A stretch of 64,000 nucleotides of DNA, taken from a virus. Position 1 is the first letter of the stretch. Each line of letters opens with the position of its first letter. The DNA is taken from the UHGV virus genome UHGV-0390448; one strand, 5' to 3'. The position numbers and the translations under genes are program-made. This document shows positions 9,577 through 51,656 of the stretch, piece by piece. The notes below the pieces were generated by a model. It ran no database searches. It saw only the letters and a program-made list of their open reading frames with translations, and had not been told where the DNA came from.

Positions 9577-9791
9577 CAGTGCACCTCCACGCAGTTCATC
9601 GGCAGATTCCAGTAATTGAGGATCTCCATCGCATCAAGAGTGAAGCGAGCAGCAAAAATGCAGGGTTCTTCGGGAAGGTATGAGCGCGCTTCTGCTTCGG
9701 TAGCTGCCATGACGCAGATGTAGAGGTGTTTTTGGCAGGAATAGAAACGCCAGATAAATTCAGAATGAGTTGGGGTAGGGATAGTAGCCAT
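9576..9791 (-). CDS. Ash-like small protein, paralog of 51016-51240
   Basis: 71 aa; shares EFIWRF and AATE-EAR motifs with the second copy; start-stop overlap with the Rha gene. Confidence 0.45.
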   Translation of the reverse strand: MATIPTPTHSEFIWRFYSCQKHLYICVMAATEAEARSYLPEEPCIFAARFTLDAMEILNYWNLPMNCVEVH

Positions 9792-10594
9792 ATTGGCAGC
9801 CTCCTTTGACTAAGTTAAGGAGCTACCGCGTGAGGTTCCAATCTCAATGGCGGTAGCACTGACTGGGTTGGAACTACCGGCGTCAAAGGGAACCGGCCTG
9901 CCTTTCGGCAGCCCAGCCAGCACTACCATTGATCTCTGAGCTAAACGCTAAGTATGGCTGTGCGATGGCATGACACAAAAAAAGACGCTTTCGGCGTCTG
10001 TGTCGCCTTTGACATTATCCGGGGTTCCAATCCCGGCACCCGTTTTTCTAAGGTGCCGTAGAAATATACCCCACGATAATGCCTGGGCGCAACAGTCTGT
10101 ATTTTTATGCTTTGGAGGATTTCTTCCGGGCTTGTTTGCAAGCGTAGGCCATTGCTTTAGCTTTCACTTCATCCAGCTTTCCGGTGATCACTTCTTTTCC
10201 GAGAGTGACAAACCAGTCATAGCAACCGCCAGTGATGTTCTGGATTTGAAAGTTGAGGTAGCGAACGGTCATTTTGACACCCCCAGCGCGAGTAAAGAAT
10301 GCAGATTATCGCGTGAGTGGCGGACAATGAGTGATGGGGAAAGACAGTAGTTGTTCATAGTGTAGTGACTCCTTGCTTTCGGAGCCGCCATCGACTGTTC
10401 CACGGTCTGGTGGCGGCGCAATAAAGGCTGGAACACCGTGAGTCAACGGGGGCTTTTCAGCCACCTATATTGCACCGCCATTGGTATGGCGGCGGCAATC
10501 ATACGAAAAACCAAACGGTTTGTCTCAAAAAGTTGACCGGTGTACCAATCGGTTGTGAATGTACAACGGTGAATTTCACAATTCAACTTAAAAT

Positions 10595-10601
10595 GTTAGA
10601 A
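10595..10601. promoter_or_regulatory. gttagaa half-site of the recurrent operator motif
   Basis: atgttagaaaactaattt; at the 3' end of the ref-like gene. Confidence 0.35.
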
Positions 10602-10603
10602 AA

Positions 10604-11221
10604 CTAATTTATTAATTCAGTCACCATCTGATACAACGTCATTTCATCAGCATTGTGCCGCCTGAAATCTGCTTTGCCGCCTATTTTTCCATCAGCATGA
10701 ACAGGGACCAACCAGGGGTATTGCTCGCGTATCTCTGCTGGCGCTGCGTGTTGATGGTGCCATTTACACAAAGGGAGAACGTATTTATGCGCGTTCTCTG
10801 CCGTTCTCCCGAAGATGTGGTGCAGGGATACCACAGGGCTATGCTGTCCGTGCATATGGCAGGCAATGCAGGGGAGGGCACCGATGGCAGTTTGTATCCG
10901 GCGCTCATCTGCTGTGAGTGTTCTGCCTTTCAGGCCGCGTGACGCGCGAGTTTTTTTGACAGGAGCAGAAGCGGCCTTCTCTTTTCTTCGCTGTTCATAT
11001 TGCTTCGCTTTTTCAATTTTCTTTTGCCGATATTCAGGCGATGCGGCTTTTTCTCGCGCACGCTGCTGCTGGCGTTGAGCTTGCTGAAGACGTTTTGCCC
11101 TTTGTTCCTCCCGCCATTTCGGATCAGCCAGTTTTTGCAGGGCTTTTTGTGTCTGTTTCTCCCAATAGCTTTGCTTCATAGAAATACCCGGTTTGTCTAC
11201 ATCGCCGCTATGGTTGATCAA
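10604..11221 (-). CDS. ref: Ref-like HNH endonuclease (recombination enhancement function)
   Basis: Highly basic, low-complexity N-terminal half plus C-terminal CIACHMHGQH...CKWHHQH HNH-like motif, as in P1 Ref. Start may be the internal ATG at 11179 rather than the TTG at 11221. Confidence 0.6.
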   Translation of the reverse strand: MINHSGDVDKPGISMKQSYWEKQTQKALQKLADPKWREEQRAKRLQQAQRQQQRAREKAASPEYRQKKIEKAKQYEQRRKEKAASAPVKKTRASRGLKGRTLTADERRIQTAIGALPCIACHMHGQHSPVVSLHHIFGRTAENAHKYVLPLCKWHHQHAAPAEIREQYPWLVPVHADGKIGGKADFRRHNADEMTLYQMVTELIN

Positions 11222-12377: not shown

Positions 12378-12870
12378 AGGTTTAACGCCCGCACAACTGG
12401 CAGAGCGTAACGCTGAGTATGTAACGGAAATTTCCCGACTTGAGAAAGAGCGCGCGGCGCTGGCGGCGGAGAATGCACTTGCTCGTAAAGCTGTTCAGGC
12501 ATTCTGTGATGTTGTTGGCGACAACACTGAGATTATCTCCGAGTTGGTTGGGCGAGATGGCGTTCTGGTTATTTTGGAGGCCATGAAAGTAACAGGAAAT
12601 ATGCCAGCCACCGACGCTTTCCTGGCTGAAATACGTGCGGAGGCACGCAACGAGGGGATTAACTACACCGCAAGCCGCCTTGCTGCCGCTTTCAACCACG
12701 GATTTATCAATAAGTCTTTACGTGAAGTTTTCGACGTTACACGCATGATTCTGTCAGCGAAAGAAGAGTTGGCTAATGAACTGCACCCAATTGATGGCCT
12801 GTCCGGTGAATATGCGGAGAAATCCCTTGAAGAATGGGCGGAACAGATTCGCAAAGGAGTTCAGTCATGA
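12367..12870 (+). CDS. Hypothetical protein with ERAALAAENA coiled-coil motif (Ea22/Ead-like)
   Basis: 167 aa; motif recurs in 13841-14548 and 18117-19251. Confidence 0.5.
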   Translation: MKSEGLTPAQLAERNAEYVTEISRLEKERAALAAENALARKAVQAFCDVVGDNTEIISELVGRDGVLVILEAMKVTGNMPATDAFLAEIRAEARNEGINYTASRLAAAFNHGFINKSLREVFDVTRMILSAKEELANELHPIDGLSGEYAEKSLEEWAEQIRKGVQS

Positions 12871-13844: not shown

Positions 13845-14548
13845 AATTTTCCAAATTTTCTGAGTTGGTGAATCGTATTTTGTCCAACAACCACAGCCAT
13901 CGTCGCGATATGGATGTAACGATCGTTGTTCATTCGCCTGGCAGCATTGGTTCAACACCTTCAGTTGAGGTTCAGTCAATTCACGCTGGTTTTGATTGGG
14001 ATTCCGGGAAAGTGCTGATTTTCCCAGCACAGCCACTGACCACGCTAACACCAGAACAGATTACTGATATCACGGATAGTGTGCGCAAAGGTCAGTCTTG
14101 GCACGCATACCAGGAATACAAGAAGCATAAAGAGCAGTTGGAAAAATTGTCGATTGAACTGGATGCTGCAAGACGGCGCATTACAGAACTGGAGAGCGAA
14201 CGCGCGGTGCTGGCGGCGGAGAATGCGGAGCTGAAGTCTGTGCACCCTCAACCATTCGGAGCTGAGATGATGAAGGCTCTTGATGCGTATGAGAAGCATC
14301 AGGATGAAGTGCCAGAGACTGGAATGCTCAATGCATTTTTCATCTTGCGCGACAGCATCCGTGTTGAAACCCCAGCCACCGACTCTTTCCTGTCTGAAGT
14401 GCGGGCGCAGGGGGTGGAAATGTTTGCACAGAAATGTAACTCAAAATCCGCACAGTCGCTTGCATCTGATATACGCGATAACTGGAAACTACTCGGTGAA
14501 CATGCAACTGACTTTGCCGATGAGCTTCGAAGAGGAAGCAGCAAGTGA
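13841..14548 (+). CDS. Hypothetical protein with Ea22-like coiled coil
   Basis: [16 protein letters not shown] motif. Confidence 0.5.
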
Positions 14549-17871: not shown

Positions 17872-18130
17872 GTCAAAATGCCAAATTAATGGCAACAAGA
17901 TAGAACCGTGCGCGGCGTTGGCACAATCCCTGGAGCATGACGCTGAATACACGACGCGAAAAGGTCTGCTGAAATACAAAATCTATAACCATGCATTAAT
18001 TCATTCACAAGACCTGATCATGCTGCGGTCAGGCGAGTTTTCTAAATCGCCGATTCGAATTTCATTTTGCCCGTTCTGTGGTGAAAGTCTGAAAACGTGG
18101 GAAGCGGAGGCAACCAGTGAGCAAAATTAA
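17864..18130 (+). CDS. Hypothetical small protein
   Basis: ORF only. Confidence 0.4.
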   Translation: MSESKCQINGNKIEPCAALAQSLEHDAEYTTRKGLLKYKIYNHALIHSQDLIMLRSGEFSKSPIRISFCPFCGESLKTWEAEATSEQN

Positions 18131-18575
18131 CTATCAAGAACTGCGCGAGGCGGCGGAACAGGCAACGCAAGATGAATGGGTAGCATATATTTTGCCGGGT
18201 CATAACGGCATTTATCCTGCGCGCACGTCTGAGGGTAGGCATTGCGGATACTTTATTGACTGGCCTGGCATTGATGGACAAAGGAATGCTGGTGCTAATG
18301 CCCGTTATATCGCGGCTATCCCACCAAAAGTTGCGCTGGCACTCCTGGGCGAAATTAAGCGCCTGGAAGACACAAATATTGATGCCATGTGCCGAATTGC
18401 AGAACTGGAGAGCAATCGCGCGACGCTGGCGGCGGAGCAGCGTATTCAGATTGCAATAAATGAACTGGTTGCTCTGGCCCCGTGCCTGGATAAAAGAGCG
18501 ATGGATGCACTCTCTGTGACTGTGGTGCACCTGTATAAACTGATTAATAAGGAGGCAACCAGTGAGCGAAATTAA
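18117..18575 (+). CDS. Ead/Ea22-like protein, paralog A
   Basis: MSKINYQELREAAEQATQ N-terminus, paralogous to 18562-19251. Confidence 0.5.
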   Translation: MSKINYQELREAAEQATQDEWVAYILPGHNGIYPARTSEGRHCGYFIDWPGIDGQRNAGANARYIAAIPPKVALALLGEIKRLEDTNIDAMCRIAELESNRATLAAEQRIQIAINELVALAPCLDKRAMDALSVTVVHLYKLINKEATSERN

Positions 18576-19251
18576 TTACCAGGCACTGCGTGAGGCGGCA
18601 GTGAAAGCAACGTGGGGAGACTGGGACTCATATAAACCACACCGTGGCGCACGTGGTTATGAGGTCCGACTAAGTAGTCAGGCCATTGCGCAACACGTTC
18701 TGAAAAACAACGCTGAATTTATTGCTGCCTTTAATCCAAAGGTTGCTTTGGCACTACTGGATGAGATCAACGCATTAGAGGAAACGCGTATCAACGATGT
18801 TTGCCGTATTGCGGAACTAACAAAACAACTGGAGTCGGCAAAATCAAAACTCAACGAGCAGCGCGAGCTTTACGAGGGAGTAATCGCGGATGGAGGTAAG
18901 CGCATAGCAGAACTGGAAAAACAATGCGCTGAATCGGAGCGAAAAGCATTAAGCAACTTTGAAGAGTGTGCTGCGATGGCTGAACGTATCGAAGAGTTGG
19001 AGCAGGCCAACACAAGACAGGACGCCAATATAAACCACCAGCAGGAGGGCGTGACTCAATCAGTCACCCGATACATATATCACTACAACGCAGTGAATGG
19101 TTCTGACTCTATGTCTGGAATTGCGCGGTTAAGTTTCATGATCAAATCACAATCTGACCTTGAAGAACTTAAAAGCGCGCTTAGGAATATTGGTGGTTTC
19201 CGTGCGAAAGCAATTAACTCTCTTTCATATCTTGGATGTGAGGAAGAATAG
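18562..19251 (+). CDS. Ead/Ea22-like protein, paralog B
   Basis: MSEINYQALREAAVKATW N-terminus. Confidence 0.5.
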   Translation: MSEINYQALREAAVKATWGDWDSYKPHRGARGYEVRLSSQAIAQHVLKNNAEFIAAFNPKVALALLDEINALEETRINDVCRIAELTKQLESAKSKLNEQRELYEGVIADGGKRIAELEKQCAESERKALSNFEECAAMAERIEELEQANTRQDANINHQQEGVTQSVTRYIYHYNAVNGSDSMSGIARLSFMIKSQSDLEELKSALRNIGGFRAKAINSLSYLGCEEE

Positions 19252-29634: not shown

Positions 29635-29692
29635 AGTACCCTCCGCAATAGGCGAGGGTACTTTACATTAAAATGCACTGTCTAAAAAGATT

Positions 29693-29699
29693 GTTAGAA
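29693..29699. promoter_or_regulatory. gttagaa half-site at the 3' end of cre
   Basis: ttgttagaaaattaattcagg. Confidence 0.3.
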
Positions 29700-29706
29700 A
29701 ATTAAT

Positions 29707-30735
29707 TCAGGAATCCATCAGGCGACTATTTGCACCAACGGATGCCCCGCTACGGCGCAAATATCGCATAAGTGTTTCGGGCTTTTTCCATGTGCCTTCC
29801 TGCATGATCTCGACCATTGACACCTGTTTCTCAGCCATATCAATTGCCGCACCAACACGCGCACTATGACCTGTCCACGTCCGGTATCTTCCTTTGTTCG
29901 GCGTGGCATCTCGCTTATTCAGCAATCCCCAGGCATCGCTGAATATTTTCTCCATCGCAGGAGCAGTAAGAGGCGTTGTCGTGATTCTGGCTTTATTACT
30001 GCGGTGTATTGGCGGGAATAGCACCGCGTCCGGATGTTCACGAAGTCCGGACACCTCCAGCCAGTCGTTTAGCACGGCGGTAGTGCAACGAGAAAGCACC
30101 TTATCAAGTCCGGCGGCGGTCGTGATGGTCTTCGTGTGTGAAATATGCAGCGTTACAGTGTCACCTGTTTGGTCCAGATCTCCGACACGGATGCGCGAGA
30201 TTTCTGACATACGCATCAGGGTATTGTATGCCACGAAGAGAAACGCCCGATTGCGCAGGTCCACCAGCCGCTCGGAACGGGACAGCAATACGTCGAGCAA
30301 TTTCAGATCATCCCACCGCAACGGTATAGCCTGGCCTGTACGCTCGCCTTTTTCCGTTGCCGCTTCGCGCCGGATGCGCCGCATGGCCAGAGATACACTT
30401 TTATCGTCTGACAGCGGCGGTAGGCCGCATTGCGAAAGCAGCATGTTAAGCATGGCATAGTGCTTATCAATGGTGGTCGAAGCCAGATCGGCTTCATGCA
30501 ACTGGAGAAGATACTCGCGGGCCATTTCCGGCGTAATCGGGAACCAGGGGCGCTGGCGCGAATTACACCACCGCGCCCAGGAATGAAAGACCAGACGGAG
30601 ATCACGAAGTGTATTTGGGGCATAAGCTCCCTGGTCGTTCATGAACTGCATAAAGTTTTTTGCAGCTTCCTGGTATTCGGTGCCAATATCGCGCAGAAAA
30701 CCGCCAGAACCGCCGGAGATAACTAGTTCACCCAT
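29707..30735 (-). CDS. cre: Cre-like tyrosine site-specific recombinase
   Basis: 342 aa; blocks WFPITPEMAREYLLQL, AYNTLMRMSEISRIRVGDL and WTGHSARVGAAIDMA align to P1 Cre (WFPAEPEDVRDYLLYL, AYNTLLRIAEIARIRVKDI, WSGHSARVGAARDMA). Confidence 0.85.
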   Translation of the reverse strand: MGELVISGGSGGFLRDIGTEYQEAAKNFMQFMNDQGAYAPNTLRDLRLVFHSWARWCNSRQRPWFPITPEMAREYLLQLHEADLASTTIDKHYAMLNMLLSQCGLPPLSDDKSVSLAMRRIRREAATEKGERTGQAIPLRWDDLKLLDVLLSRSERLVDLRNRAFLFVAYNTLMRMSEISRIRVGDLDQTGDTVTLHISHTKTITTAAGLDKVLSRCTTAVLNDWLEVSGLREHPDAVLFPPIHRSNKARITTTPLTAPAMEKIFSDAWGLLNKRDATPNKGRYRTWTGHSARVGAAIDMAEKQVSMVEIMQEGTWKKPETLMRYLRRSGASVGANSRLMDS

Positions 30736-30886
30736 GAAACTATTAAACCTCTATATACAGATGACGCTACGTGAAAAATAGAAAACTGACAGGGTAGTTA
30801 TAAGTTAATTTTCAAAATTCAAGCCTTTGATTCGAGGCATGATTTTTCATCCTTGTCAATACTACCTGTTTACTGGAGATTATAGC

Positions 30887-30920
30887 CTAACTTTAAATAA
30901 TGCCAATTATTTAAAGTTAG
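30887..30920. other. lox-like recombination site, 13-bp inverted arms with 8-bp asymmetric spacer
   Basis: ctaactttaaata-atgccaat-tatttaaagttag; arms 9/13 identical to loxP, spacer begins ATG like loxP; about 150 bp upstream of the cre-like start. Confidence 0.6.
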
Positions 30921-31089
30921 AAATCGGGACTTTTTTCCCAAAAAAACACCGGCAAGATCACTTCGCAAATCTGTCAGCCATGCGGTAGCCGTTTCCTGGT
31001 TACATTTTCTAATAGGAACAATCAAAAAAAAGCGGTTTTATCCTTTACTCACCTTGTTATTCAGCATAAATTTGTCACAGGACTTTTAT

Positions 31090-31096
31090 GTTAGAA
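31090..31096. promoter_or_regulatory. gttagaa half-site about 20 bp upstream of the candidate repressor gene
   Basis: atgttagaaaactaaat. Confidence 0.4.
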
Positions 31097-31116
31097 AACT
31101 AAATCGAGTAGGAATA

Positions 31117-32154
31117 ATGAGTAAGAAGTCGATCGAGAATGAGTACAAACGGTTCCTGCAAACCGCTGAACGGTGGAAAGAGCTGGTGGTCGCAAACTCT
31201 GTTTTCCATGATACCAGTTACGTTGGCGAGGAATTTCGCCATGTTGCATTAACACATGATCCGGCTGTATTAGAAGAAGCTGAAAAATGCATAGCCGAAT
31301 GGAAAGCCTTTGTTGATCTGTGTCGCAAGGATGATGACAAAGCCTCAAACATTGTTGAGTCGGTTTATTTACCGATCCCATTCATTGTTGAGGATACTAA
31401 TCAGAGTACGCATATCGTTATGCAAAGCGCAACCACAACGAGAACATTTACGCGCGAAGACCTGCTGAAAAAATACGATAAAACTATAAAGAAAAGCATG
31501 AAAAACAGGATCTTTTCACAGGTTGTCGGTGCGCTTGAAGAAGAACGCAGATTCTTCGCCGCAGAACGTGAGGGCGAGGTATACCGCGCAAGAAAAGAAG
31601 GTTATACCGATGTGGTGATTACCACCAATATCGAGGGCAACAATGGACTTTCACGCTTCAGAGTGGGTACGCACGGTGCGCTGATCTTTGCAAAAAAAGC
31701 AAACACAGAGATTCCCGTTGTTAACAACGTTGGTGAGCGCCGCACCCTTACCATTTACACTGGCATTAAACCGCTTCCGTGCGGACTTCTCGGCGAATTT
31801 GACCTTTATCGGGTTCGTGACCTGGAAAAGCAGCAGCCAAGCTATGTCGTGAAGTCATATATCCTGAGAAACATTGATATCCGCAATCAGAGTTTAAAAA
31901 ACAAATCAGAGAAAATGCTGTCCGAAGCCGATCCAGCCATACACCAGATCGTTAGCCGGAAAATTCAAGAAGCTAAAGATGCAATGGCAAGGCTGGATAA
32001 AATGGACCTGGAACTACTGGAAGTTATGATTGCCTCCGGCGATGACCTGACAGGCATCCGCCTTACTGAAGCCAGGAAAAAATACGGTAAAAGCGTTGAA
32101 GAACGCTATGGGTACACATTCACACAAACGATGTACGCGGCAAAACTCTGGTAA
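31117..32154 (+). CDS. Candidate immunity repressor, positional analogue of P1 c1; family not recognised
   Basis: 346 aa from MSKKSIENEY; convergent with pacB and between pacB and lox, where P1 has c1; own terminator. No similarity to P1 C1 recognised from memory. Confidence 0.5.
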   Translation: MSKKSIENEYKRFLQTAERWKELVVANSVFHDTSYVGEEFRHVALTHDPAVLEEAEKCIAEWKAFVDLCRKDDDKASNIVESVYLPIPFIVEDTNQSTHIVMQSATTTRTFTREDLLKKYDKTIKKSMKNRIFSQVVGALEEERRFFAAEREGEVYRARKEGYTDVVITTNIEGNNGLSRFRVGTHGALIFAKKANTEIPVVNNVGERRTLTIYTGIKPLPCGLLGEFDLYRVRDLEKQQPSYVVKSYILRNIDIRNQSLKNKSEKMLSEADPAIHQIVSRKIQEAKDAMARLDKMDLELLEVMIASGDDLTGIRLTEARKKYGKSVEERYGYTFTQTMYAAKLW

Positions 32155-32170
32155 TCGCAAGCCACCCACA

Positions 32171-32194
32171 AGCCCCGAATCGCCGGGGCTTTTA
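32171..32194 (+). terminator. Rho-independent terminator after the candidate repressor
   Basis: agccccg-aatcgc-cggggct followed by tttt. Confidence 0.55.
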
Positions 32195-33700
32195 AATGTC
32201 AATATCAGGAATATCCACTTCTGCCAACACCTGATCGCGGAATGTTGCTAGTTCTGCGCCAATGTCTTCATTAGCAGGCACGTAATCCACCAGCATAGTG
32301 AAGCAGTAGGTATCCCATCTGTCCGGCGACTTGATGTTTAACTTCTGCCGCATGTGCTCCTTGCGCATCATCGCCACCTTCCCTTCTTCGTTAAGCATAT
32401 ACGGGATTTTTGATGCCTGATCGGCAGTTTTGGGGTCACTATCGATACGCATACGCCCTGATTTAATGGCATCCCCTGCCATAATATTGGCGTAAGCACG
32501 CTGATTGACAAAGCGTTCTCTGTCTCTTAGCGCAAACATAGGTTTACCCCAACGGATGCGAACGGGATTAGCACCACGGCGGACAAGCTGCGCACACGTA
32601 TCTGAACCAAAGCCATCAGCATCCACAGCAATGGTGATGTTCGGGTATTTATCAGGAGTGCATTCGTTATAGATAAAGTCGGCAAAAGCCAACGGGTCCA
32701 TAGTGCCTGGCATCTCCAGTATCTTAAAGTTCACAACACGTCGTTTCTCACGATAACCGGATACTTTGCATATATTGAGCACCGATTTGTCGCGACCATT
32801 ACCGACGTCAGCGGTCGCTACCCAGCCCCAATCTTTCTCCAGCAACACTTTACGCCGTGCGGCGCGGTCGCACTCATCACGACCAAGCAAATACCCGTTA
32901 ATTGCACGCGGGAACTGGCCCAGCACCTTAACCATGTACTCCAGCGAATCCCTGCCGCCGTACTCCAGCAATTTCTCACGAATAAAGCTCGGTTCAACGA
33001 ATGGAGATTCTTCAGAGTTAAGGACTATTGCCGTCCAGACTCCTTCCGGATTGCCTTCTGCCTTTGCCCTTGAATGGTGGGATTCATAAAAGTAACCGCT
33101 TGGACGCGTAGGCTGGGAAAGCATGAGCATACGGTTATCTTTCTGCGTTAACGCCCCCGTCATGACGTTAATCGCCTTATCTGATATGCCCGATGCTTCA
33201 TCAAGGATTAGCAGTAAATGCTCCGCGTGCTCCCCCGCCAGTGCCTCTTCGTTACCGAGTCGATAACCTTTACAGAGCACTTCCCATATCCCTTTACGGG
33301 AACGCTCATAAAACATGGTGTCAGACAGGACAAAATAGGTCTGTAACCAGCCGTGGCGCTTAACAGCATTCGCCCAAAACTGTTTCACGTATTTGAATAC
33401 GCCTGTTTTTACCTGGCCTATTTTGTTCGCAACAATAATGACGCGGGCGTCGGGGAACAGGATCATAAAAATTAGTAGCAACATCGCGGTAAGGGACGAC
33501 TTACCCGTTCCGTGTCCGGACGTAACGGTCGTCCTGCTCCCCGTCTCCTGCACTGACTGAATGATCTGCTGCTGCTGGTGGGAGGGGAACATCCCAAAAA
33601 TATCGACAACCGCCTGGGTAAAGTTGTATCGATACCTGATAACCATATCGCGCCAACGTGGATCACTGGTGACGCACTTAATCTTACGACCACCAGCCAT
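32192..33700 (-). CDS. pacB: Terminase large subunit (PacB-like)
   Basis: Walker A-like TSGHGTGKSS, Walker B LLLILDEASGI; 502 aa; follows pacA. Confidence 0.8.
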   Translation of the reverse strand: MAGGRKIKCVTSDPRWRDMVIRYRYNFTQAVVDIFGMFPSHQQQQIIQSVQETGSRTTVTSGHGTGKSSLTAMLLLIFMILFPDARVIIVANKIGQVKTGVFKYVKQFWANAVKRHGWLQTYFVLSDTMFYERSRKGIWEVLCKGYRLGNEEALAGEHAEHLLLILDEASGISDKAINVMTGALTQKDNRMLMLSQPTRPSGYFYESHHSRAKAEGNPEGVWTAIVLNSEESPFVEPSFIREKLLEYGGRDSLEYMVKVLGQFPRAINGYLLGRDECDRAARRKVLLEKDWGWVATADVGNGRDKSVLNICKVSGYREKRRVVNFKILEMPGTMDPLAFADFIYNECTPDKYPNITIAVDADGFGSDTCAQLVRRGANPVRIRWGKPMFALRDRERFVNQRAYANIMAGDAIKSGRMRIDSDPKTADQASKIPYMLNEEGKVAMMRKEHMRQKLNIKSPDRWDTYCFTMLVDYVPANEDIGAELATFRDQVLAEVDIPDIDI

Positions 33701-35064
33701 TAGTCATCCTCCGGCTGGTCTATCGCAATCTCGTCATCTACAGCATCAAAACCGGTATCCCCCGCGTCATAATCACCGTAGATATCAGCCGTGGCGGAAG
33801 GGTCTATATTCAGGTCTTCATCATTGGCCTCAAATTCACCGGCTTTACGTTCTCCGTTCCGGTCGTAATCCCCCATCCCAAGCCTATCAACGATTTTCGC
33901 TACTTCAGCCCGGCGTTGTGCAAGCCATTGTGGGAGTCCAGCTTGTTGCTCGGCAAACTGCTTCGCCTCTTTATCCAGTTGCTCATCATCAACATCGTTA
34001 ACGTCAGAAACCGGAGGCTCCAGAAGTGAGATCGCTTTTGCCGCTCGTGCCGCCAGGATAGCCGGGACACTGACGCCCTGCCGCTCGATATATTCAGCAA
34101 CGCCTATATCGTCCAGCTCCTCGCGCTCACGCATACGTATAGCGGCGGCGATAACTCTGGCGGCGCGTGCGTCAGCGCCAATGCGATACTCAATCTCTTT
34201 GCCACGCTGCTCGGCTTGCAGGCGAGTAATCGCCAGTTTTTCTCTGGCCTCAGCCTCTCTGAATGCCTGCTGGCGCGCGCCCTGCGCAAGTTTTTCATCC
34301 CCCTGGCGTAGCTTCTGCTCGGTCTGGTAGATGGCAGCCAACCTACTGATAAAGTCATTCATGTAGTAGGCCGCATCGCTTATTAGGCCGAGAAGACGCT
34401 GCCCTGGGTGCATTCCCTCTGGCTGTGTATCGCCGAGGGCGTCAATCTCTTCCTGTAGTCGTTCCGCTTCCTGGTCAACGATGGCCTGATACTGAATTGC
34501 TCGTTCCTGCGCCATCTGTATCGCAAGTCGTAAATGTTCAGTCGCGCCGTTCTTCATCATCTCACGGGCGACGTTGGTGGCAGGCAAAGTGGCGCTTTGA
34601 GCTGATGAGTCAGGGATCATTTGCAATGATCCCTTGTTTCGTTGGGCTTTTTCGCTGCTTTTAGGGATCATTTCCCCCATTTCATCACAAAATGATCCCC
34701 TTACATCCTTGTGTATCTTATTGTTATTACTTGGCTTTTCTTTGTGATCCGCATTTTGTTTTTGCGGCATGGCGCGGAATCGTCCACCAGCTAACGATTT
34801 GTCAGTTTTTGTAAATTCTGTGCTTTTATCAGCCTTTTTTTGCTCTTTTTTTGGGCTTGTGGCGCTACTTTTTGCGCGCTGTTTTGTACTTTTCCCGGCA
34901 GCCTTAGCTTTCGCTTTAACCTCGTTTTTTTTCATATTGAGATGCTTTCTGGCGGTGTTAAAGCTGAGGTCATGCTGCTCGCAATATTCTTTTATGGTGA
35001 TCCCGGTTTCTTCTCTTAACTCCAGGAACTTAGCTCGATGCGCTTCCCAGTTAATTAACGTCAT
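33700..35064 (-). CDS. pacA: Terminase small subunit (PacA-like); contains pac-like repeats
   Basis: Position upstream of pacB with start-stop overlap; N-terminal HTH-like region; internal GATC repeat cluster. Confidence 0.6.
   Translation of the reverse strand: MTLINWEAHRAKFLELREETGITIKEYCEQHDLSFNTARKHLNMKKNEVKAKAKAAGKSTKQRAKSSATSPKKEQKKADKSTEFTKTDKSLAGGRFRAMPQKQNADHKEKPSNNNKIHKDVRGSFCDEMGEMIPKSSEKAQRNKGSLQMIPDSSAQSATLPATNVAREMMKNGATEHLRLAIQMAQERAIQYQAIVDQEAERLQEEIDALGDTQPEGMHPGQRLLGLISDAAYYMNDFISRLAAIYQTEQKLRQGDEKLAQGARQQAFREAEAREKLAITRLQAEQRGKEIEYRIGADARAARVIAAAIRMREREELDDIGVAEYIERQGVSVPAILAARAAKAISLLEPPVSDVNDVDDEQLDKEAKQFAEQQAGLPQWLAQRRAEVAKIVDRLGMGDYDRNGERKAGEFEANDEDLNIDPSATADIYGDYDAGDTGFDAVDDEIAIDQPEDD
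34612..34700. other. Candidate pac site: four GATC-centred heptamers as two inverted pairs
   Basis: agggatcatt/aatgatccc at about 34612-34633 and again at about 34664-34699, inside pacA; P1 pac is built from Dam-site hexamer repeats within pacA. Confidence 0.45.
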
Positions 35065-35453
35065 AGGGAAGCCTCACGTTTTTTCACAGCGGCGTTCCAT
35101 AGCTGGTTAGTCATCGCCACCAACTGACGCTGCTCCTTTCGTAATTGAGCTTCTATCTTTCGGTTGGTGTTTTTCACCAACAGCCGACCGAATTCAGGAG
35201 TGCGCCCGCGCACCTTGAACTGGTATCCATTCAGGCCATGTAGCCAATATTTCCGGGGGTATACGCGGTCGTCTATTTCGCAAATGGCACGACTGGAACG
35301 AACAAAAAAACGTATGATGTTATTTACGTTTACGCGCGACACATGAAGGTGAGGATATTGTGCTTTTGCACGGCTGGTGATTTCGGTGACCGTCAGATAG
35401 CAGTCAGCCCTGATCATGATATCCGCTATTTCGGCGCTACTGATTTGCTCCAT
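35061..35453 (-). CDS. Hypothetical protein at the position of P1 lpa (late promoter activator); unverified
   Basis: 130 aa immediately upstream of pacA; degenerate operator site upstream. Confidence 0.35.
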   Translation of the reverse strand: MEQISSAEIADIMIRADCYLTVTEITSRAKAQYPHLHVSRVNVNNIIRFFVRSSRAICEIDDRVYPRKYWLHGLNGYQFKVRGRTPEFGRLLVKNTNRKIEAQLRKEQRQLVAMTNQLWNAAVKKREASL

Positions 35454-35530: not shown

Positions 35531-35558
35531 TATTAGAAAATTAATATTAACTTACTAA
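35531..35558. promoter_or_regulatory. Degenerate operator site attagaa-N14-tactaac
   Basis: Same 7-14-7 spacing; upstream of 35061-35453. Confidence 0.4.
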
Positions 35559-35560
35559 CA

Positions 35561-35944
35561 CTACCAGCGGGATAAACGAACAACATGCTTAACTTTTGCC
35601 TCCCACTTCCCTTTATGTTTGTTGATCACCGCCTGCGCCATCTTCAGACTGGCTTCAAAATCGGCTTTTCGACCACTATTGCCCACCAGCAACGCTCCGT
35701 CTATTTCGGGTAAGCATAAGTAATCCTGCTCGACGGTAAGCGGCATTGATGATGTAACCTGGCAGGCTTTCCATCTGAAGCGTATGCGCACACTCCTGAC
35801 TGACATCACGACATAACCTGATATTGTGCTCTTGTGTCCGGCGTCTGTGCGTGTAGCCTTGCATGATGTTATCTTGCAGGTGATGATGTCCCAACCAATG
35901 TGCATCGCATCCTCAATGCGTAATTTAGTAGCCTCGTACATCAA
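35561..35944 (-). CDS. Hypothetical protein
   Basis: ORF only. Confidence 0.45.
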   Translation of the reverse strand: MMYEATKLRIEDAMHIGWDIITCKITSCKATRTDAGHKSTISGYVVMSVRSVRIRFRWKACQVTSSMPLTVEQDYLCLPEIDGALLVGNSGRKADFEASLKMAQAVINKHKGKWEAKVKHVVRLSRW

Positions 35945-36970: not shown

Positions 36971-37046
36971 TGGTGGCCCCTACCGGACTTGAACCGGTGA
37001 CCGTGCGATTATGAGTCGCCCGCTCTAACCACTGAGCTAAAGGGCC
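36971..37046 (-). tRNA. tRNA with CAU anticodon, most similar to tRNA-Ile2 (lysidine type); Met not excluded
   Basis: Reverse complement GGCCCTTTAGCTCAGTGGTTAGAGCGGGCGACTCATAATCGC...GGTTCAAGTCCGGTAGGGGCCACCA resembles E. coli ileX; CCA encoded. Confidence 0.8.
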
Positions 37047-37063
37047 AGATTACTGTTAATTAC

Positions 37064-37192
37064 GCTTACGCTTTTTGCCAGAACCGCGTAAGGCTTTTGC
37101 CGCTTGCTCTACCCCGTATGCAACCACCAGCAGAAACAATAATGTCCACTCCGGGTTTTTATCGGCAAACGCCCAAAAATCCATCACTTGCA
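37064..37192 (-). CDS. Small membrane peptide (about 42 aa) inside the tRNA operon, candidate
   Basis: aaggtgg RBS 7 nt before ATG; predicted MDFWAFADKNPEWTLLFLLVVAYGVEQAAKALRGSGKKRKRN. Below the ORF-track cutoff. Confidence 0.4.
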
Positions 37193-37474
37193 GCCACCTT
37201 TTAAGACAAACGCCATTGCTGTTAGGTTGCGGTGCCGGGTGCCTCCCGGTGACGTTAACCAGTTAACAATTAACGCCGGATCACTTATGGATTCTCGTTA
37301 CGCCAGTAAAAAGACCACCTTTACTGTTTTAACTGTTCCGCGTGCGCTTAGCCGCATTCACCGCAATGGTAAGAGCATTTGGCTGACTGGGCGGCGATGA
37401 CGCCTGTACGCATTTGGTGATCCGGTTCTGCTTCCGGCATTCGCTTAATTAGCCAAATACTCTTAACGTTGCGA

Positions 37475-37561
37475 TGGCGGAGAGTAATGGAATCGAACCA
37501 TCATCGCTTGGGCGACGGGACGGTTTTCAAGACCGCTTGAGCACCATGCTCCCTACTCTCC
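37475..37561 (-). tRNA. Atypical type-II tRNA, Ser-like (UGA anticodon)
   Basis: Anticodon arm GCGGT-CTTGAAA-ACCGT as in E. coli serT, long variable arm, T-loop TTCGATT, CCA encoded; D-arm non-canonical. Confidence 0.5.
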
Positions 37562-37719
37562 AGTGATTGTGGTGGTCGGTGCTGATCTCCGACTGCGCCT
37601 CTTTTTTTCATAGCCCATAAGGCCGGTCAGTGCGCTTGATGACTGAGGCATCGATATTTACTACGCCGCCTCGTTGCCATAGGGCGGACTTGCGCGCCAG
37701 CAACGCGCATTCACCACAA

Positions 37720-37793
37720 CGGTAAGGGTACTTCGTAGGGATTCGAACCCTCTGCCAAGCACGGCGATCTCCGACGTCGCAAAATACCCTTAC
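37720..37793 (-). other. tRNA-like fragment: perfect T-arm inside a 10-bp inverted repeat, no acceptor pairing or CCA
   Basis: GGTAAGGGTA...AGGG-TTCGAAT-CCCT...TACCCTTACC on the minus strand; cannot be folded into a canonical cloverleaf. Confidence 0.3.
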
Positions 37794-37802
37794 CTGTTGT
37801 GT

Positions 37803-37878
37803 TGGTGCCGGTTAACGGACTCGAACCGCTGACATCCTGCTTACAAGGCAGGCGCTCTACCAACTGAGCTAAACCGGC
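37803..37878 (-). tRNA. tRNA-Thr (UGU)
   Basis: GCCGGTTTAGCTCAGTTGGTAGAGCGCCTGCCTTGTAAGCAGG...GGTTCGAGTCCGTTAACCGGCACCA; canonical cloverleaf. Confidence 0.85.
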
Positions 37879-37882
37879 AATT

Positions 37883-37969
37883 TGGTGGGGAGTGATGGAG
37901 TCGAACCATCCGAGTCGCAATGACAGTAGATTTACAGTCTACCCCGCTACCCCTACGGACTAACTCCCC
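37883..37969 (-). tRNA. Type-II tRNA, Tyr-like (GUA anticodon), atypical D-arm
   Basis: Anticodon arm GTAGA-CTGTAAA-TCTAC, long variable arm, T-arm GATGG-TTCGACT-CCATC, CCA encoded. Confidence 0.55.
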
Positions 37970-37974
37970 TAAAT

Positions 37975-38051
37975 TGGCGATGGTGGGTGGATTCGAACCA
38001 CCGACCGACAGCTTAGAAGGCTGCTGCTCTATCCTACTGAGCTACACCATC
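37975..38051 (-). tRNA. tRNA-Arg (UCU)
   Basis: GATGGTGTAGCTCAGTAGGATAGAGCAGCAGCCTTCTAAGCTG...GGTTCGAATCCACCCACCATCGCCA; resembles E. coli argU. Confidence 0.8.
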
Positions 38052-39366
38052 ACTTGCCGGGTACGTCTCCGGCGAGGGCTTCCACCTCCGTATGCTTTTC
38101 GGCGCACCGCGCCCTGGCTGCAATTCGGTAACAGGGGATACACAACCCTGGCTTCCAGCGTGATTAGCGCCTTCAGCATGACGGGATATACCCGTTACAA
38201 GACATTATTCCAGAAAGCCATTAACCAATGGCTGTTACGCGGGAAGGACGTAACAGGTAAGGGCGCTGACCAGAAAGACCTGACCCTTCTCATTCATCTG
38301 GTTAATCACACCGGCGCCCTTGCCTGTTATGCCTCCCCGTTCCCTAATACACAGACGGGGACACTCTGCGGTCGATTTTTTGACGGGGGACGACTCATAC
38401 CCCGTGGCGTCAGGCTTCTTAGGCCGCTACCATCATCAGATCATCGTTTGCATTTACTTTAATGGTCGGGTTCTAAACCGCCGCAAAGTCGCTAACCATG
38501 ACGAAAACACTGAAAAAACACCCACCCGAAGGTGGGCAAATATCCCACTCGCGGTATTGCCACTTAGGCGTATGGTCAACCTGGCAACTCGGTGTCCTCA
38601 ACGGGGAAGGAATAACCCCGCCATACTTACCGCCGCGCCTGTCGCGGTTATCGCTACGTATCAACATAAAAGCCGACTGCCTGAGCAAGATTCACTTTCA
38701 AAGGCCCGCAGAAAGGAATCCATAGTCGGCTTTTATCTTGAAGCGGCTCTCTCTCCGCCCGTCACCGTCCTATCCCGGTTGTCGCGTTTGCCACGCCAGC
38801 CGTAACGAGGTTTAAAGTCTTTTCACGTTTTCATCACTCGACTGCCGTCTATGGCTGTTCGTTGCAGCGGGGGTGCCTCCCCCTGGGGATATCCCCGGCC
38901 TTACCCCCATTCTTTCAAAACACAATGCAAGGCCACATCCGCATAGGTGCATTACCGCAACGTTAAGGAGACTCAGAGTCAGCAAAATAAGAGGAAAACC
39001 CAACTCTGCGCCTCCTTAACGTTGAGGATGTGCACTGATGATGACCCGATGCAGCCTGGCCCACTTAACATACTCACTGCCAGATCATCATCAATGAACA
39101 CCTTAAAAAGACCTTCCGTGGCTCAAGTCACTGTCGTTTACTCCGTAAAATGCTCTCGCTGAAACCACTTTACGCACTAAACCTGCCGGGCATGTATTTG
39201 CACGGTGCCGGAGCTTTCCCTTACCTTAAAATTTACTTTCTAACACTTAAGTTTGTTTGATGCTGGTGGGGGAAGACAATGAAGTGACTATCAAACCCGC
39301 AAGCGACATGGGAAGCTCCCCACCAGCACGAAAAATTCTATGTTAAGTTAATTCCATAATCAACAT
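38052..39366 (-). other. About 1.3-kb ORF-free, inverted-repeat-rich region between the tRNA cluster and an operator site; candidate transcribed leader or structured ncRNA
   Basis: Only short, overlapping, low-complexity ORFs in all frames; long-range inverted repeats, e.g. acgttaaggag/ctccttaacgt (about 38959-39022), tgatgatga/tcatcatca (about 39036-39095), aaaagccgact/agtcggctttt (about 38670-38733). Confidence 0.25.
39238..39244. promoter_or_regulatory. ttctaac half-site
   Basis: tttactttctaacacttaag. Confidence 0.3.
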
Positions 39367-39394
39367 GTTAGAAAGATAATTTTAGTTTTCTAAC
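39367..39394. promoter_or_regulatory. Operator site gttagaa-N14-ttctaac
   Basis: atgttagaaagataattttagttttctaacac; between the 3' end of 39398-40606 and the ORF-free region; positioned to control minus-strand transcription into the tRNA cluster. Confidence 0.55.
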
Positions 39395-39397
39395 ACA

Positions 39398-40606
39398 TTA
39401 TTTCCCGTAAAGATTTTCAACTCCACCGTTCTTCTTATCCCACTCGTTCGCCCATACCCGGCAAGCATCAATTATTTCCTGACGTCGATCGCCCTGCATG
39501 AACGGAATGCTTTCATGAAAGCTGCTTGGAATGCAGGCCACACTGAACACTGTATCAAACTCAGTCTGCTTGATTGCCTCCAACGTCTCTGGACGCATTT
39601 TCAATTCGTCGATCGGTGCATCCTTAGAGTCCATAATCCGGCGATGTAAGCGTGGAAAATCCGTTTCAAGGTACGCCATAATTTTATCTGCCAGACATTC
39701 GTCTATGTCGGTATTCCAGTCAGTTTCGAAGCCAGGAATTCGGTAGTAAAGCGGCGCTCCCCATACTGACGGGATCACATCCATCGTCAGCAGGCGGCTG
39801 GTTCTGATTTGCTGATGGTAATTTGCCGTCAGCAACGCTTCGCCACGTTGCCCAGTCTCCGCGACCAGACCATGCGGAAACTCATGGATATAGGCAATAG
39901 CTTCTCTTCCGTCATACATTAGCGGGAATGTCTCTGGCCTTTGCCCCATGCCACAGGCGCGATTCAGATCATGACCAAGCTCTGAGCACTCTCGTTTCAA
40001 TGTTTCAATAATGCTCTGCGCCGCTGCTAACTTTTTACGCAGTGTGACGAGTTCGCCTTGATACTCAACGCATTGCTGATTTAGCTTGGTTAAACGCTCT
40101 TTTAGTTCCCGACGCTCTCTTTTCAGCGTGCGGTTATCTTTCTCCGCAACATCCAGTCGTTTTGTCAGGCTTGGCGGATAGTCTTTTTTGTAACGACTCA
40201 AATCGACTTCAGCAGATTTGCGCAGTGTATTTGCCTGCTCAAGACGCGCCTCCAGATTGCCGATCTCATTACGCATATTCGCGGCAAATTGATTAACAGC
40301 ATCCCCCAGGCTTTCAACTGTCGCTGATACACCAGTGACTTGAGAAAAACGGATCAAGCCATCATTAACGGCTTGCTGATATTCCTCAAACTGATCCACC
40401 AGCTTATTGTAATCAACTGCCCCATCATCAAGGAGCTGGTTGATTTCCGCCACCAGGTTATCTGTAGTGGCAATGACGCTCTCATGCAGTCGCTTTGACA
40501 GGTCATCGCCCGGATTTCGTTTCTGTATAAGCGCGATTTGTGTCCGCAGCGTTTCAATTGCGGTTGAGATGATCTCCAGGCTTGATGATTCTACTTGCTG
40601 ACTCAT
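39398..40606 (-). CDS. Hypothetical 402-aa protein, N-terminal coiled coil plus C-terminal globular domain
   Basis: Single-gene unit: half-site upstream, terminator further upstream, full operator site downstream. Confidence 0.55.
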   Translation of the reverse strand: MSQQVESSSLEIISTAIETLRTQIALIQKRNPGDDLSKRLHESVIATTDNLVAEINQLLDDGAVDYNKLVDQFEEYQQAVNDGLIRFSQVTGVSATVESLGDAVNQFAANMRNEIGNLEARLEQANTLRKSAEVDLSRYKKDYPPSLTKRLDVAEKDNRTLKRERRELKERLTKLNQQCVEYQGELVTLRKKLAAAQSIIETLKRECSELGHDLNRACGMGQRPETFPLMYDGREAIAYIHEFPHGLVAETGQRGEALLTANYHQQIRTSRLLTMDVIPSVWGAPLYYRIPGFETDWNTDIDECLADKIMAYLETDFPRLHRRIMDSKDAPIDELKMRPETLEAIKQTEFDTVFSVACIPSSFHESIPFMQGDRRQEIIDACRVWANEWDKKNGGVENLYGK

Positions 40607-41871: not shown

Positions 41872-42132
41872 TTAATGGTTTATTTTATCCGGTTCGTTAA
41901 TTTCTGTAACCGCCTTGTCGATAGCGATCATCCATCCTTCATAGGATAAATCATCAACAAGGCCCACCAGCTTATCGTCAGTGTGCGGAAAATAAATCCA
42001 TCCCCATTTCGAAGGGTTTTCTATATGCCGCAGGGTAAATACCCGCTTATAACGGTGGTATTCAAGGGCGTATCCCTTCCCTTGTGAGTACGCTTTTAAG
42101 TCGTCGATCGTAAACCTACGATTCTTTCGCAT
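41872..42132 (-). CDS. Hypothetical small protein
   Basis: 86 aa; 3-nt gap to upstream gene. Confidence 0.45.
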   Translation of the reverse strand: MRKNRRFTIDDLKAYSQGKGYALEYHRYKRVFTLRHIENPSKWGWIYFPHTDDKLVGLVDDLSYEGWMIAIDKAVTEINEPDKINH

Positions 42133-50111: not shown

Positions 50112-51016
50112 TCAAGTTACGATCCAATCATTACCGACTGCATCCGCCGTCGATAAATCGACTTCCCGGATCTGGTATCCATTAACACAAAACCATCCAG
50201 TAGTAGAGCTATTATCAGGCCAGACCCATACACCAACACTCCATGCTTTACGGCGGCACACTTCAGCCTGTCCTTCCCTGATTTTTTTTACCGCCTGCAT
50301 GATGTCCATCACTCGCCTCCCCAACCGATCACCTGGAATTGTCCCATCCTTGGGTGATACCAGCGTTTTCCTCGGTGTTCAGCCTCCGACATCATCAGGT
50401 TAAAGGCATTCATGAAGGGAGATAAGGCCACAATAGTACGACGCGACAATACCCCCTCTGGCGTCAAAAACTCATGCGTATCAGTGGGTATCCGGTAAGC
50501 GTTGACCAGGTTGCGGCATTTGGCTTCAGTCAGGCCGCATTTTGCCGCCAACTGGCGGTAGCCAATGTAGCCTTCCGGAATATTGCCTTTCTTGATCTGC
50601 TCGACGGTTTCAGCAACCTGGCTAACCTTTGACTCAACAACATGAAGCCGCTTTTGCTGCTGAACTGCATTTGCAGCCATTGCAGCGATCATCTCTATTT
50701 CGGTCAACGGCTGGCGTACTTGTTCTTCCAGTTCGCGCCAGCGGTCCACCAGCCGGGCGGTGAATTCGGGAGAGAGCTGCGCGACGACGATAATGCTATC
50801 GCGCTTGCCTTGCTCGCCTTCGAAGACGTAAGCCTCAACACTACGTCGTAGTCCTAAGTTATTGATTTTTTCGAAAACCTCAATTTGAGGACGAACAATA
50901 ACGCCACCTTTGGCTAATGTCTCAATAGTGCGTTTCACATTGTCATGACGTTTTCCCACCAGCTCCGCAATCTCAATGCTGGTCATTGATGGTTTTTCGA
51001 GAATGCAGATATCCAT
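50112..51016 (-). pseudogene. Rha-family regulatory gene, copy 2, split into two overlapping ORFs by a frameshift
   Basis: ORFs 50309-51016 (235 aa) and 50112-50324 (70 aa) together align to the intact 308-aa copy at 8650-9576; frame switch falls just after the shared WYHPRMG-FQ motif, near 50325-50345. Confidence 0.5.
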
Positions 51017-51240
51017 CAGTGAGCCTCCGCAATGCAGGGATTAGTAATATTGCGATACCAGGGGTTAGTGTTTGGTTGTGGGGAAGTAGAGAAACGACCA
51101 GTGAGCACGCCATACTGATCAGGGATCAGAGAACGGGCTTCTTTTTCAGTTGCGGCAATTGCGAAGTGATCGCAGTGTTTTTGCAGGGAGTGAAAACGCC
51201 AGATGAATTCTGGACGTGAGCAAGGATTGGCATTAACCAT
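51016..51240 (-). CDS. Ash-like small protein, copy 2
   Basis: 74 aa; paralog of 9576-9791. Confidence 0.45.
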   Translation of the reverse strand: MVNANPCSRPEFIWRFHSLQKHCDHFAIAATEKEARSLIPDQYGVLTGRFSTSPQPNTNPWYRNITNPCIAEAH

Positions 51241-51570
51241 AGTTACGGCCTCACTAACAGGTTTAACAACCTGCTACCCGCTGCTAAACAGGTGGCAGGA
51301 CGTGACGGGGTTAGCAGACTGGCGTTAGTGAAACCAGCAGGCCGAAGCCTCCCCATCACGCCCCACCATAATTTGGGCGTAACGCGGTTTTACGGACACA
51401 AAAATACCGCAATATCGGATATCTGCGGTTGTCCGCACTAACATTCAGGCTGCTAAACCCGGTCGCAGAATTTGCTACGACGGCATGAATATAAGCCTGA
51501 ACATTAGAAAGATCAACAGAATTTTTATCAGATGCTGTTTTTTAGTGACGATATAAATCATACATTCTTG

Positions 51571-51598
51571 ATTAGAAACATCAATTTAATTTTCTAAC
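51571..51598. promoter_or_regulatory. Operator site attagaa-N14-ttctaac upstream of the Ash-Rha module
   Basis: gattagaaacatcaatttaattttctaacat; about 330 bp upstream of the Ash start. Confidence 0.5.
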
Positions 51599-51656
51599 AT
51601 ACATTTTCGAGCGATGAAATTCCCGCCGCACGGTTATTGTACAGTCAATCGCAACA

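Follow-up and report, generated by a model that had tools for sequence, protein, structure and literature searches.

The gene at positions 31117-32154 of the window, by which we mean the whole 64,000-nucleotide stretch of virus genome UHGV-0390448 analyzed in this study, is very probably the orthologue of c1 of phage D6, encoding a distant homologue of the C1 repressors of phages P1 and P7 and a putative repressor of lytic functions that would bind operators of about 17 bp. The window is a D6-like phage-plasmid, a plasmid prophage of E. coli, and a D6-type c1 has previously been named as such both in GenBank and by the NCBI pipeline. The preliminary description of this locus had placed an immunity repressor at the c1 position, and this assignment is supported by synteny, by homology, and by the distribution of operator-like sites. 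It had also found no recognizable similarity to C1, a view that did not survive direct sequence comparison. The gene was delimited as follows:

31117-32154, + strand: c1 gene of the D6 type, 345 aa, assigned by homology, profiles, and structural model

The open reading frame comprises 345 codons, from the ATG at 31117 to the last sense codon before the stop codon at 32152-32154. The reading frame reported previously is thus real, and its length of 346 amino acids has to be corrected to 345, because the stop codon had been counted. A TTG at 31054 is an alternative start that would lengthen the open reading frame. The ATG at 31117 is preceded by AGGA at 31110-31113, and the sequence MSKK, which begins at this ATG, forms the N-terminus in all homologues.

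A tblastn search against phage genomes found phage D6 only, with 80.3% identity over the full length of 345 residues, C-terminal extension included, that is, with an amino acid divergence of 20%. The D6 orthologue (AAV84948.1 / ASR76322.1) is annotated as 'c1: phage repressor protein; similar to the C1 repressor of phage P1' in AY753669 and as 'prophage repressor' in MF356679. A sequence identical to that of the window protein over all 345 amino acids is deposited at NCBI as 'phage repressor protein [Escherichia coli]' and occurs on 111 contigs. Residues 1-345 matched positions 2-347 of the profile of PHROG 1678 (E 9.8e-159), a family that carries no function label; the protein therefore belongs to this D6-type family with its C-terminal extension of ~100 amino acids included. 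Of the public records, that of an E. coli plasmid of pig-faecal origin (NZ_AP027414.1, 99.3% identity) comes closest, and 195 PLSDB plasmids, mostly from Escherichia, Salmonella, and Shigella, match the c1 region.

The relationship to P1 C1 was apparent from a plain BLASTP comparison, which aligned 241 collinear residues at 21% identity (E 1e-7). The NCBIfam model NF041318 (phage_rep_C1) matched residues 9-244 with an E-value of 1.7e-5 and a score of 24.5 bits, compared to an equivalog cut-off of 500 bits and to the 607.5 bits reached by P1 C1 itself. As this score lies far below the cut-off, the D6-type C1 is no equivalog of P1 C1 but forms a separate subfamily, and its function is carried over from P1 C1 at an identity of 21%. 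Alignment by hhalign of two profiles, one built from ten D6-type proteins and the other from twelve of the P1 type, gave a probability of 97.4% and an E-value of 9.4e-12 over 230 columns, pairing residues 6-240 with residues 7-245 of P1 C1. The profile search against P1 C1 that had been recommended as a check consequently uncovered a diverged C1, and since both the profile and the BLASTP matches are significant, the very outcome that the preliminary description had named as speaking against its reading was obtained. When the D6-type profile was run exhaustively against 1.84 billion representatives by hmmsearch, 87 proteins were retrieved. These form a continuum of relatives with lengths of 250-290 and 340-380 amino acids, and the same search reached the P1-type C1 P0026 at an E-value of 9.4e-7. 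Precomputed annotations assign Pfam PF27008 (Phage_P7_repressor_C1) to the D6-type and the P1-type families alike. The local copy of Pfam yielded no match for the window protein and none for P1 C1 either, and sequence profile searches of the PDB found no relative. With similarity to P1 C1 extending across the family core, the protein is a member of the P1/P7 C1 repressor family.

The alternative raised previously, namely that an analogous repressor evolutionarily unrelated to P1 C1 has replaced c1, could draw on the low pairwise identity of 21%, the missing match in the local Pfam copy, an operator consensus unlike that of P1, the missing coi, imcA, and imcB genes (the latter two points are detailed below), and a length exceeding that of P1 C1 by 62 residues. 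Against these stand a collinear similarity of ~235 residues that is significant by four independent methods (BLASTP, NF041318, hhalign, and hmmsearch), the common assignment to PF27008, and structural models that match the same single fold in the PDB. The reading as an unrelated replacement is thereby refuted, and we regard it as exceedingly improbable.

The core homologous to P1 C1 spans residues ~6-240 of the 345-residue protein. Residues ~233-345 constitute a helical C-terminal extension, which P1 C1 does not have. Conservation extends through these ~100 residues, some of which, between 253 and 343, are invariant, and the model shows two long helices (233-270 and 273-307) followed by three short ones. 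In the D6 type this structured extension takes the place of the last ~40 residues of P1 C1, the final ones of which are predicted with low confidence. Searched alone, the extension had no sequence match in Pfam or the PDB.

Compared to the D6 gene, c1 showed a dN/dS of 0.11, with values of 0.11 for the core and 0.07-0.11 for the C-terminal part. As judged from these ratios, the gene is under purifying selection. Across its relatives, down to 42% identity, 72 positions are invariant. These values bear on the notion that c1 might be a decaying, non-functional remnant of a defective plasmid prophage. Nothing specific speaks for it, beyond the fact that many D6-like plasmids are uncharacterized and that truncated variants exist (PMC6799933). 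The open reading frame in the window is intact and of full length, and the low dN/dS, the invariant positions, the identical protein on 111 contigs, and the conserved operators all argue for a functional gene. A remnant is accordingly given hardly any weight, and the gene is discussed below as a functional c1.

The surroundings of c1 include the following two elements in its immediate vicinity:

30888-30919, no strand assigned: rox recombination site, 32 bp with 13-6-13 palindromic arms, TAACTTTAAATAATGCCAATTATTTAAAGTTA, placed by the annotated position in D6 and by alignment
32170-32191, + strand: probable terminator hairpin, AAGCCCCG-loop-CGGGGCUU with an 8-bp stem, then UUAAAU

The pacB gene (32192-33700, - strand) is convergent with c1, as had been described, and is followed by pacA (33700-35064, - strand) and lpa (35061-35453, - strand). 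On the other side lies a gene for a Cre-like recombinase (29707-30735, - strand), the product of which is 94% identical to Dre of D6. The position of c1 between pacB and a recombination site was thus recognized correctly; the site itself, given as lox, is rox, because TAACTTTAAATAATGCCAATTATTTAAAGTTA aligns with the rox site of D6 and the recombinase is 94% identical to Dre, which makes the element D6-like rather than P1-like. TAACTTTAAATAATGCCAATTATTTAAAGTTA also aligns with three relatives (L006-L008) and occupies the same place as the rox annotation in the D6 records. The site at 30888-30919 is the target of the adjoining Dre-like recombinase and lies at the border of immC. The window, P1, and D6 share the order lpa-pacA-pacB, c1, recombination site, recombinase, and c1 thereby lies in immC, convergent with pacB and adjoining a Cre-type recombination site.

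The hairpin at 32170-32191 occupies the space between the stop codons of the convergent c1 and pacB genes. It has a folding energy of -17.4 kcal/mol (z -2.96), and none of 200 shuffled sequences folded equally well. The hairpin was not flagged by a consensus and pattern scan for terminators, because its U-run lies partly within the stem. It is probably an intrinsic terminator common to c1 and pacB, so that the terminator ascribed to c1 in the preliminary description exists downstream of the gene, although probably not for c1 alone.

No homologue of coi, imcA, or imcB was detected in the window or in D6 by tblastn with P1 Coi, ImcA, and ImcB (best E-values from 0.08 to >1), in agreement with the earlier observation that open reading frames of the corresponding sizes are not evident. 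There is no room for these genes between rox and c1, because the ATG lies only ~200 bp away from rox. Downstream of ulx, at the place of lxc in P1, an open reading frame of 85 amino acids (41878-42132, - strand) was found; its product shows no similarity to P1 Lxc (E 5.7). In a D6-like Salmonella plasmid, C1 and two c4/icd regions have been reported and no Lxc was detected (PMC6799933). Since Coi is absent and a homologue of Lxc is not recognized, the regulation of the repressor must differ from that in P1, and the gene content is evidence that D6-type immunity would work without Coi.

The P1 operator consensus ATTGCTCTAATAAATTT had no match in the window, even with up to 3 mismatches allowed. 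A search for repeats revealed a family of 30-bp palindromes, TGTTAGAAAAT-N8-ATTTTCTAACA. Its half-site TGTTAGAAAAT, with at most one mismatch, was observed 15 times compared to 1.64 expected, a number reached in none of 100 shuffles. The information content runs past the 11-bp seed to ~17 bp, which yields the consensus TGTTAGAAAAYTAAWWT. All 15 motif sites lie in non-coding DNA, which makes up 11% of the window; one of them was scored as coding solely through the use of the TTG upstream of c1 by the ORF caller. The 7.2 kb of intergenic DNA harbor 12 motif sites compared to 0.19 in shuffles. D6 carries the same motif at 14 sites. Compared directly, the P1 and D6-type consensus sequences agree at no more than 9 of 17 positions, which is uninformative for AT-rich sequences, and no relatedness of the two operators is therefore claimed. 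As the motif differs from that of P1, the element is probably heteroimmune to P1.

Two sites and a putative promoter lie directly upstream of c1:

31089-31105, + strand: proximal operator-like site, TGTTAGAAAACTAAATC, a motif match conserved in L006-L008
30998-31014, - strand: distal operator-like site, TATTAGAAAATGTAACC, a motif match
31044-31072, + strand: putative c1 promoter, with -35 TTTACT at 31044-31049, a 17-bp spacer, and -10 TAAATT at 31067-31072

The half-site noted earlier about 20 bp upstream of the gene, TGTTAGAAAAC at 31089-31099, proved to be real: it ends 17 nt before the ATG and belongs to the enriched motif. The sequence of the proximal site is identical in D6 (199-215). The distal site lies 85 bp from the proximal one and in the opposite orientation; it is a good match in the window and degenerate in D6. 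Both the proximal (+) and the distal (-) sites are kept in L006, L007, and L008, with spacings of 85, 85, and 97 bp, and the repressors of these relatives are only 43-49% identical to the window repressor. The promoter was read by eye and agrees with the consensus at 8 of 12 positions, which is below the scan threshold of 9/12. Both hexamers are conserved in the alignment with D6, L006, and L007. TTTACT/TAAATT is probably the c1 promoter, and would be a weak one. It follows from this assignment that the proximal operator would sit between the -10 hexamer and the ribosome-binding site, and it is probably an autoregulatory operator.

Operator-like sites were also found across the remainder of the window:

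35531-35562, no strand assigned: site upstream of lpa, the gene of the late-gene activator; positional analogue of Olpa of P1
11225-11254, no strand assigned: bivalent site in the form of a perfect 30-bp palindrome, flanked by ref (-) and a divergent early operon (+)
51570-51599, no strand assigned: bivalent site upstream of the second module of c4 antisense RNA, icd, and antirepressor
10594-10610, + strand: single site at the head of the first c4/icd/antirepressor module; it abuts the ref stop codon
52789-52805, + strand: single site ~170 bp upstream of repL, the gene of the lytic replication initiator
29692-29708, + strand: single site that follows the dre stop codon, ahead of the orf117-orf116-dut operon; its position is kept in L006-L008
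16065-16094: operator-like site before pdcB
40630 and 41685: operator-like sites before pmgS and where pmgM begins
39235 and 39366-39395: operator-like sites in non-coding DNA immediately below the stop codon of pmgS, which 39366-39395 abuts

The Rfam family C4 (RF01695) matched at 9846-9933 and 51288-51373, and c4-a1b1 matched at 51442-51494. Behind each c4 match lie icd and a homologue of an antirepressor gene, and an operator-like site precedes each; the window thus contains an immI region with c4 antisense RNA, icd, and antirepressor.

For P1, the consensus ATTGCTCTAATAAATTT, an asymmetric operator, and 22 dispersed operators have been described, and its C1 controls RepL and Lpa (PMC8546580); the P1 record annotates C1 operators at lpa (Olpa) and at c1. 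The window likewise holds many dispersed asymmetric sites of ~17 bp at early promoters, including those of lpa, repL, and c1. In both systems the sites occur singly or as inward-facing, overlapping pairs of 17-mers, which span 28 bp in Oc1ab of P1 and 30 bp in the window. P1 has five operators upstream of c1, compared to two in the window. From this placement, we infer that the TGTTAGAAAAYTAAWWT sites are operators of the D6-type C1. An interpretation of the motif as an Lpa-dependent late-promoter element was also considered and rejected, as nothing resembling TGTTAGAAAA occurs in the LPpac region of P1, and as the sites are found before lpa, repL, c1, ref, and the c4 modules, and not before pacA.

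The window protein was modeled with AlphaFold2 from an alignment of 74 sequences, with a mean pLDDT of 94 and a pTM of 0.79. Among the structures in the PDB, Foldseek returned one significant family, E. coli Tus (PDB 1ECR and 4XR0; PF05472), with E-values of 5e-8 to 1e-6 and a probability of 1.00; the next match had an E-value of 0.2. The model of a P1-type C1 (P0012, 98% identical to P1 C1; pLDDT 90) gave Tus as its only match as well (E 3.5e-9, TM ~0.45). The TM-scores of the C1 models against Tus were 0.34-0.47, and the D6-type and P1-type models share the same order of secondary-structure elements. The structure prediction for a DNA-binding fold that had been suggested as a check thus yielded a Tus-like fold for the window protein. 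A recognizable helix-turn-helix DNA-binding domain of the CI/Cro type was not found in the D6-type C1.

At the level of sequence, the window protein had no match to Pfam Ter (PF05472), the Tus family. Comparison of C1 with Tus by hhalign gave probabilities of 11.7% and 9.6% in a consistent register. Pfam Ter was the most recurrent weak match among 72 family members, of which two reach it (best E 0.012), and a PDB profile search with the C1 family profile did not retrieve Tus. Because the sequence support lies below threshold, the likeness of C1 and Tus is called one at the level of the fold, which may stem from homology or from convergence. The Ter site of Tus is asymmetric and is occupied by a monomer, and P1 C1 is likewise reported to bind an asymmetric operator as a monomer. 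A Tus-like fold would explain such monomeric binding. On the strength of the models, we tentatively consider that the C1 family, P1 and D6 types together, might be built on the Tus fold, as a monomeric clamp that reads an asymmetric site with beta-strands and is possibly a relative of Tus, and that the extension of the D6 type, as a helical hairpin, might join repressors at bivalent 30-bp operators and at the conserved pair of sites spaced by 85 bp upstream of c1; this proposal is put forward as a serious possibility, somewhat short of an even chance. No paper linking C1 with Tus was found in the literature searched; the Pfam/InterPro entry of PF27008 may note the connection.

The role of Tus is the arrest of replication forks, whereas that of C1 is transcriptional repression, and the structural match gives rise to a further alternative: the protein could be a C1 homologue whose main job is a different one, for example a Tus-like polar block of forks or helicases on the plasmid prophage, or the TGTTAGAAAA sites could belong to another factor. 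Apart from Tus being the only structural relative, the location of some sites at the 3' ends of genes (10594, which abuts the ref stop, and 39366-39395, which abuts the pmgS stop) would agree with this. However, for P1 C1, which belongs to the same family, transcriptional repression is established, and its dispersed operators number 22 (PMC8546580). In the window, sites precede lpa, repL, c1, and the c4 modules; among these targets, lpa and c1 have C1 operators in P1, where C1 also controls repL. Sites that face either way and form palindromes do not fit polar fork traps. A different role of the protein, or a different owner of the sites, is for these reasons considered unlikely.

The preferred interpretation remains that of a transcriptional repressor with its own set of operators. 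By analogy with P1, C1 is predicted to bind the asymmetric TGTTAGAAAAYTAAWWT operators of ~17 bp, present singly or as inverted pairs of 30 bp, through a DNA-binding core with a Tus-like two-domain alpha/beta fold instead of a helix-turn-helix. Binding would silence lpa, repL, ref together with the divergent early operon, and the two c4-icd-antirepressor modules. Its own promoter would be repressed via the proximal operator, possibly aided by the distal site, which would amount to negative autoregulation. The spacing of 85 bp between the two operators corresponds to about eight helical turns, and the C-terminal helical extension may pair repressors on bivalent or distant operators. Homology, synteny, the enrichment and placement of the motif, purifying selection, and the predicted fold are shown in this study, and from them it is inferred that the protein would bind the motif, act as a repressor, regulate itself, and use its extension in this way; a literature search found no published experiments on the window protein or on D6 C1.

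In comparison with known systems, the window protein is closest to D6 C1, which lies at the same place between pacB and rox/dre in a genome carrying the same motif throughout. P1/P7 C1 shares the homologous core of ~235 residues, the locus, the predicted fold, and dispersed operators of ~17 bp, among them operators at lpa and at the c1 promoter; the operators themselves follow different consensus sequences, TGTTAGAAAAYTAAWWT in the window and ATTGCTCTAATAAATTT in P1.

As c1 is already named in GenBank and NCBI, the points that might merit further attention are the predicted Tus-like fold of the C1 family and the map of D6-type operators. The operator consensus and the site map would apply to D6-type immunity on the D6-like plasmids, which occur frequently in E. 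coli, Salmonella, and Shigella. If true, the placement of C1 on the Tus fold would also account for the asymmetric operators of P1 C1 (PMC8546580).

An exhaustive profile search divided the C1 family into two size classes (alignments A4 and A5; family proteins P0032-P0115). The shorter proteins (~250–290 amino acids) resemble P1 C1, and the longer ones (~340–380 amino acids) carry the D6-type helical C-terminal extension. For a few long members the profile match stops at position ~260–310, so the C-termini of these proteins differ. In the numbering of the 345-residue window protein, W62, P88, R159, and G187 are invariant, and F13, R41, P86, A105, and R157 nearly so. The residues R41, R157, and R159 are located in predicted beta-strands.

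The site beside c1, taken for lox in the preliminary description, was identified as rox, the target of the D6 recombinase Dre, and is adjoined by a dre-like gene. The following features were found there:

30888-30919: rox recombination site
29707-30735, minus strand: Dre-like recombinase gene, product 94% identical to D6 Dre
30906..30879, minus strand: near-consensus sigma-70 promoter, TTGGCA-16-TATAAT (11/12 matches)

The promoter partly overlaps rox and is directed toward dre. Judged by site and recombinase sequence, the recombination system of the element is Dre/rox, not Cre/loxP.

Repeats were also detected elsewhere in the window:

63203-63999: ~155-nt repeat, four copies, 61–79% identity to the reference copy
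12414-12471, 14164-14221, 18380-18437: short direct repeats, early-gene region
18106-18189 / 18551-18634: short direct repeats, early-gene region

Three copies of the ~155-nt repeat are in tandem with 120-nt spacing; the fourth lies ~400 nt beyond, close to the window end, and the region matches the D6 tail-fibre/cin-invertible segment. The early-region repeats (58–84 nt, 64–79% identical) share the motif ...GCGCTGGCGGCGGAG and suggest small genes paralogous to one another.

At the position of the P1 gene for the corepressor Lxc (82 amino acids), the window has the following reading frame:

41878-42132, minus strand: 85-amino-acid ORF, directly downstream of ulx

Similarity to Lxc was not detectable by BLASTP (E 5.7), and among phage records the ORF is present in D6 only. 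It may be a non-homologous occupant of the lxc place or a strongly diverged Lxc.

The ~1.3 kb from the tRNA cluster to the pmgS stop (38100-39400), where no gene is annotated in D6, contains the last three of these features:

36974-38051, minus strand: four clustered tRNA genes (Rfam RF00005), counterpart of the D6 tRNA region
39235-39245, minus strand: monovalent C1 operator-like site
39366-39395: bivalent operator-like site
38942-38979 / 39003-39040: 38-nt inverted repeat

Leftward transcription, either of the tRNA/tciA region or of an unannotated RNA, may be under the control of these operator-like sites.

Four RNA elements were located:

9846-9933, minus strand: C4 antisense RNA gene (Rfam RF01695, 77 bits)
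51288-51373, minus strand: C4 antisense RNA gene (RF01695, 70 bits)
51442-51494, minus strand: c4-a1b1 target element
9978-10056, minus strand: isrK-like sRNA

The element thus contains two immI-like c4-icd-antirepressor modules, in part duplicated (8886-9761 versus 50332-51210, 70–95% identical), each preceded by a C1 operator-like site.
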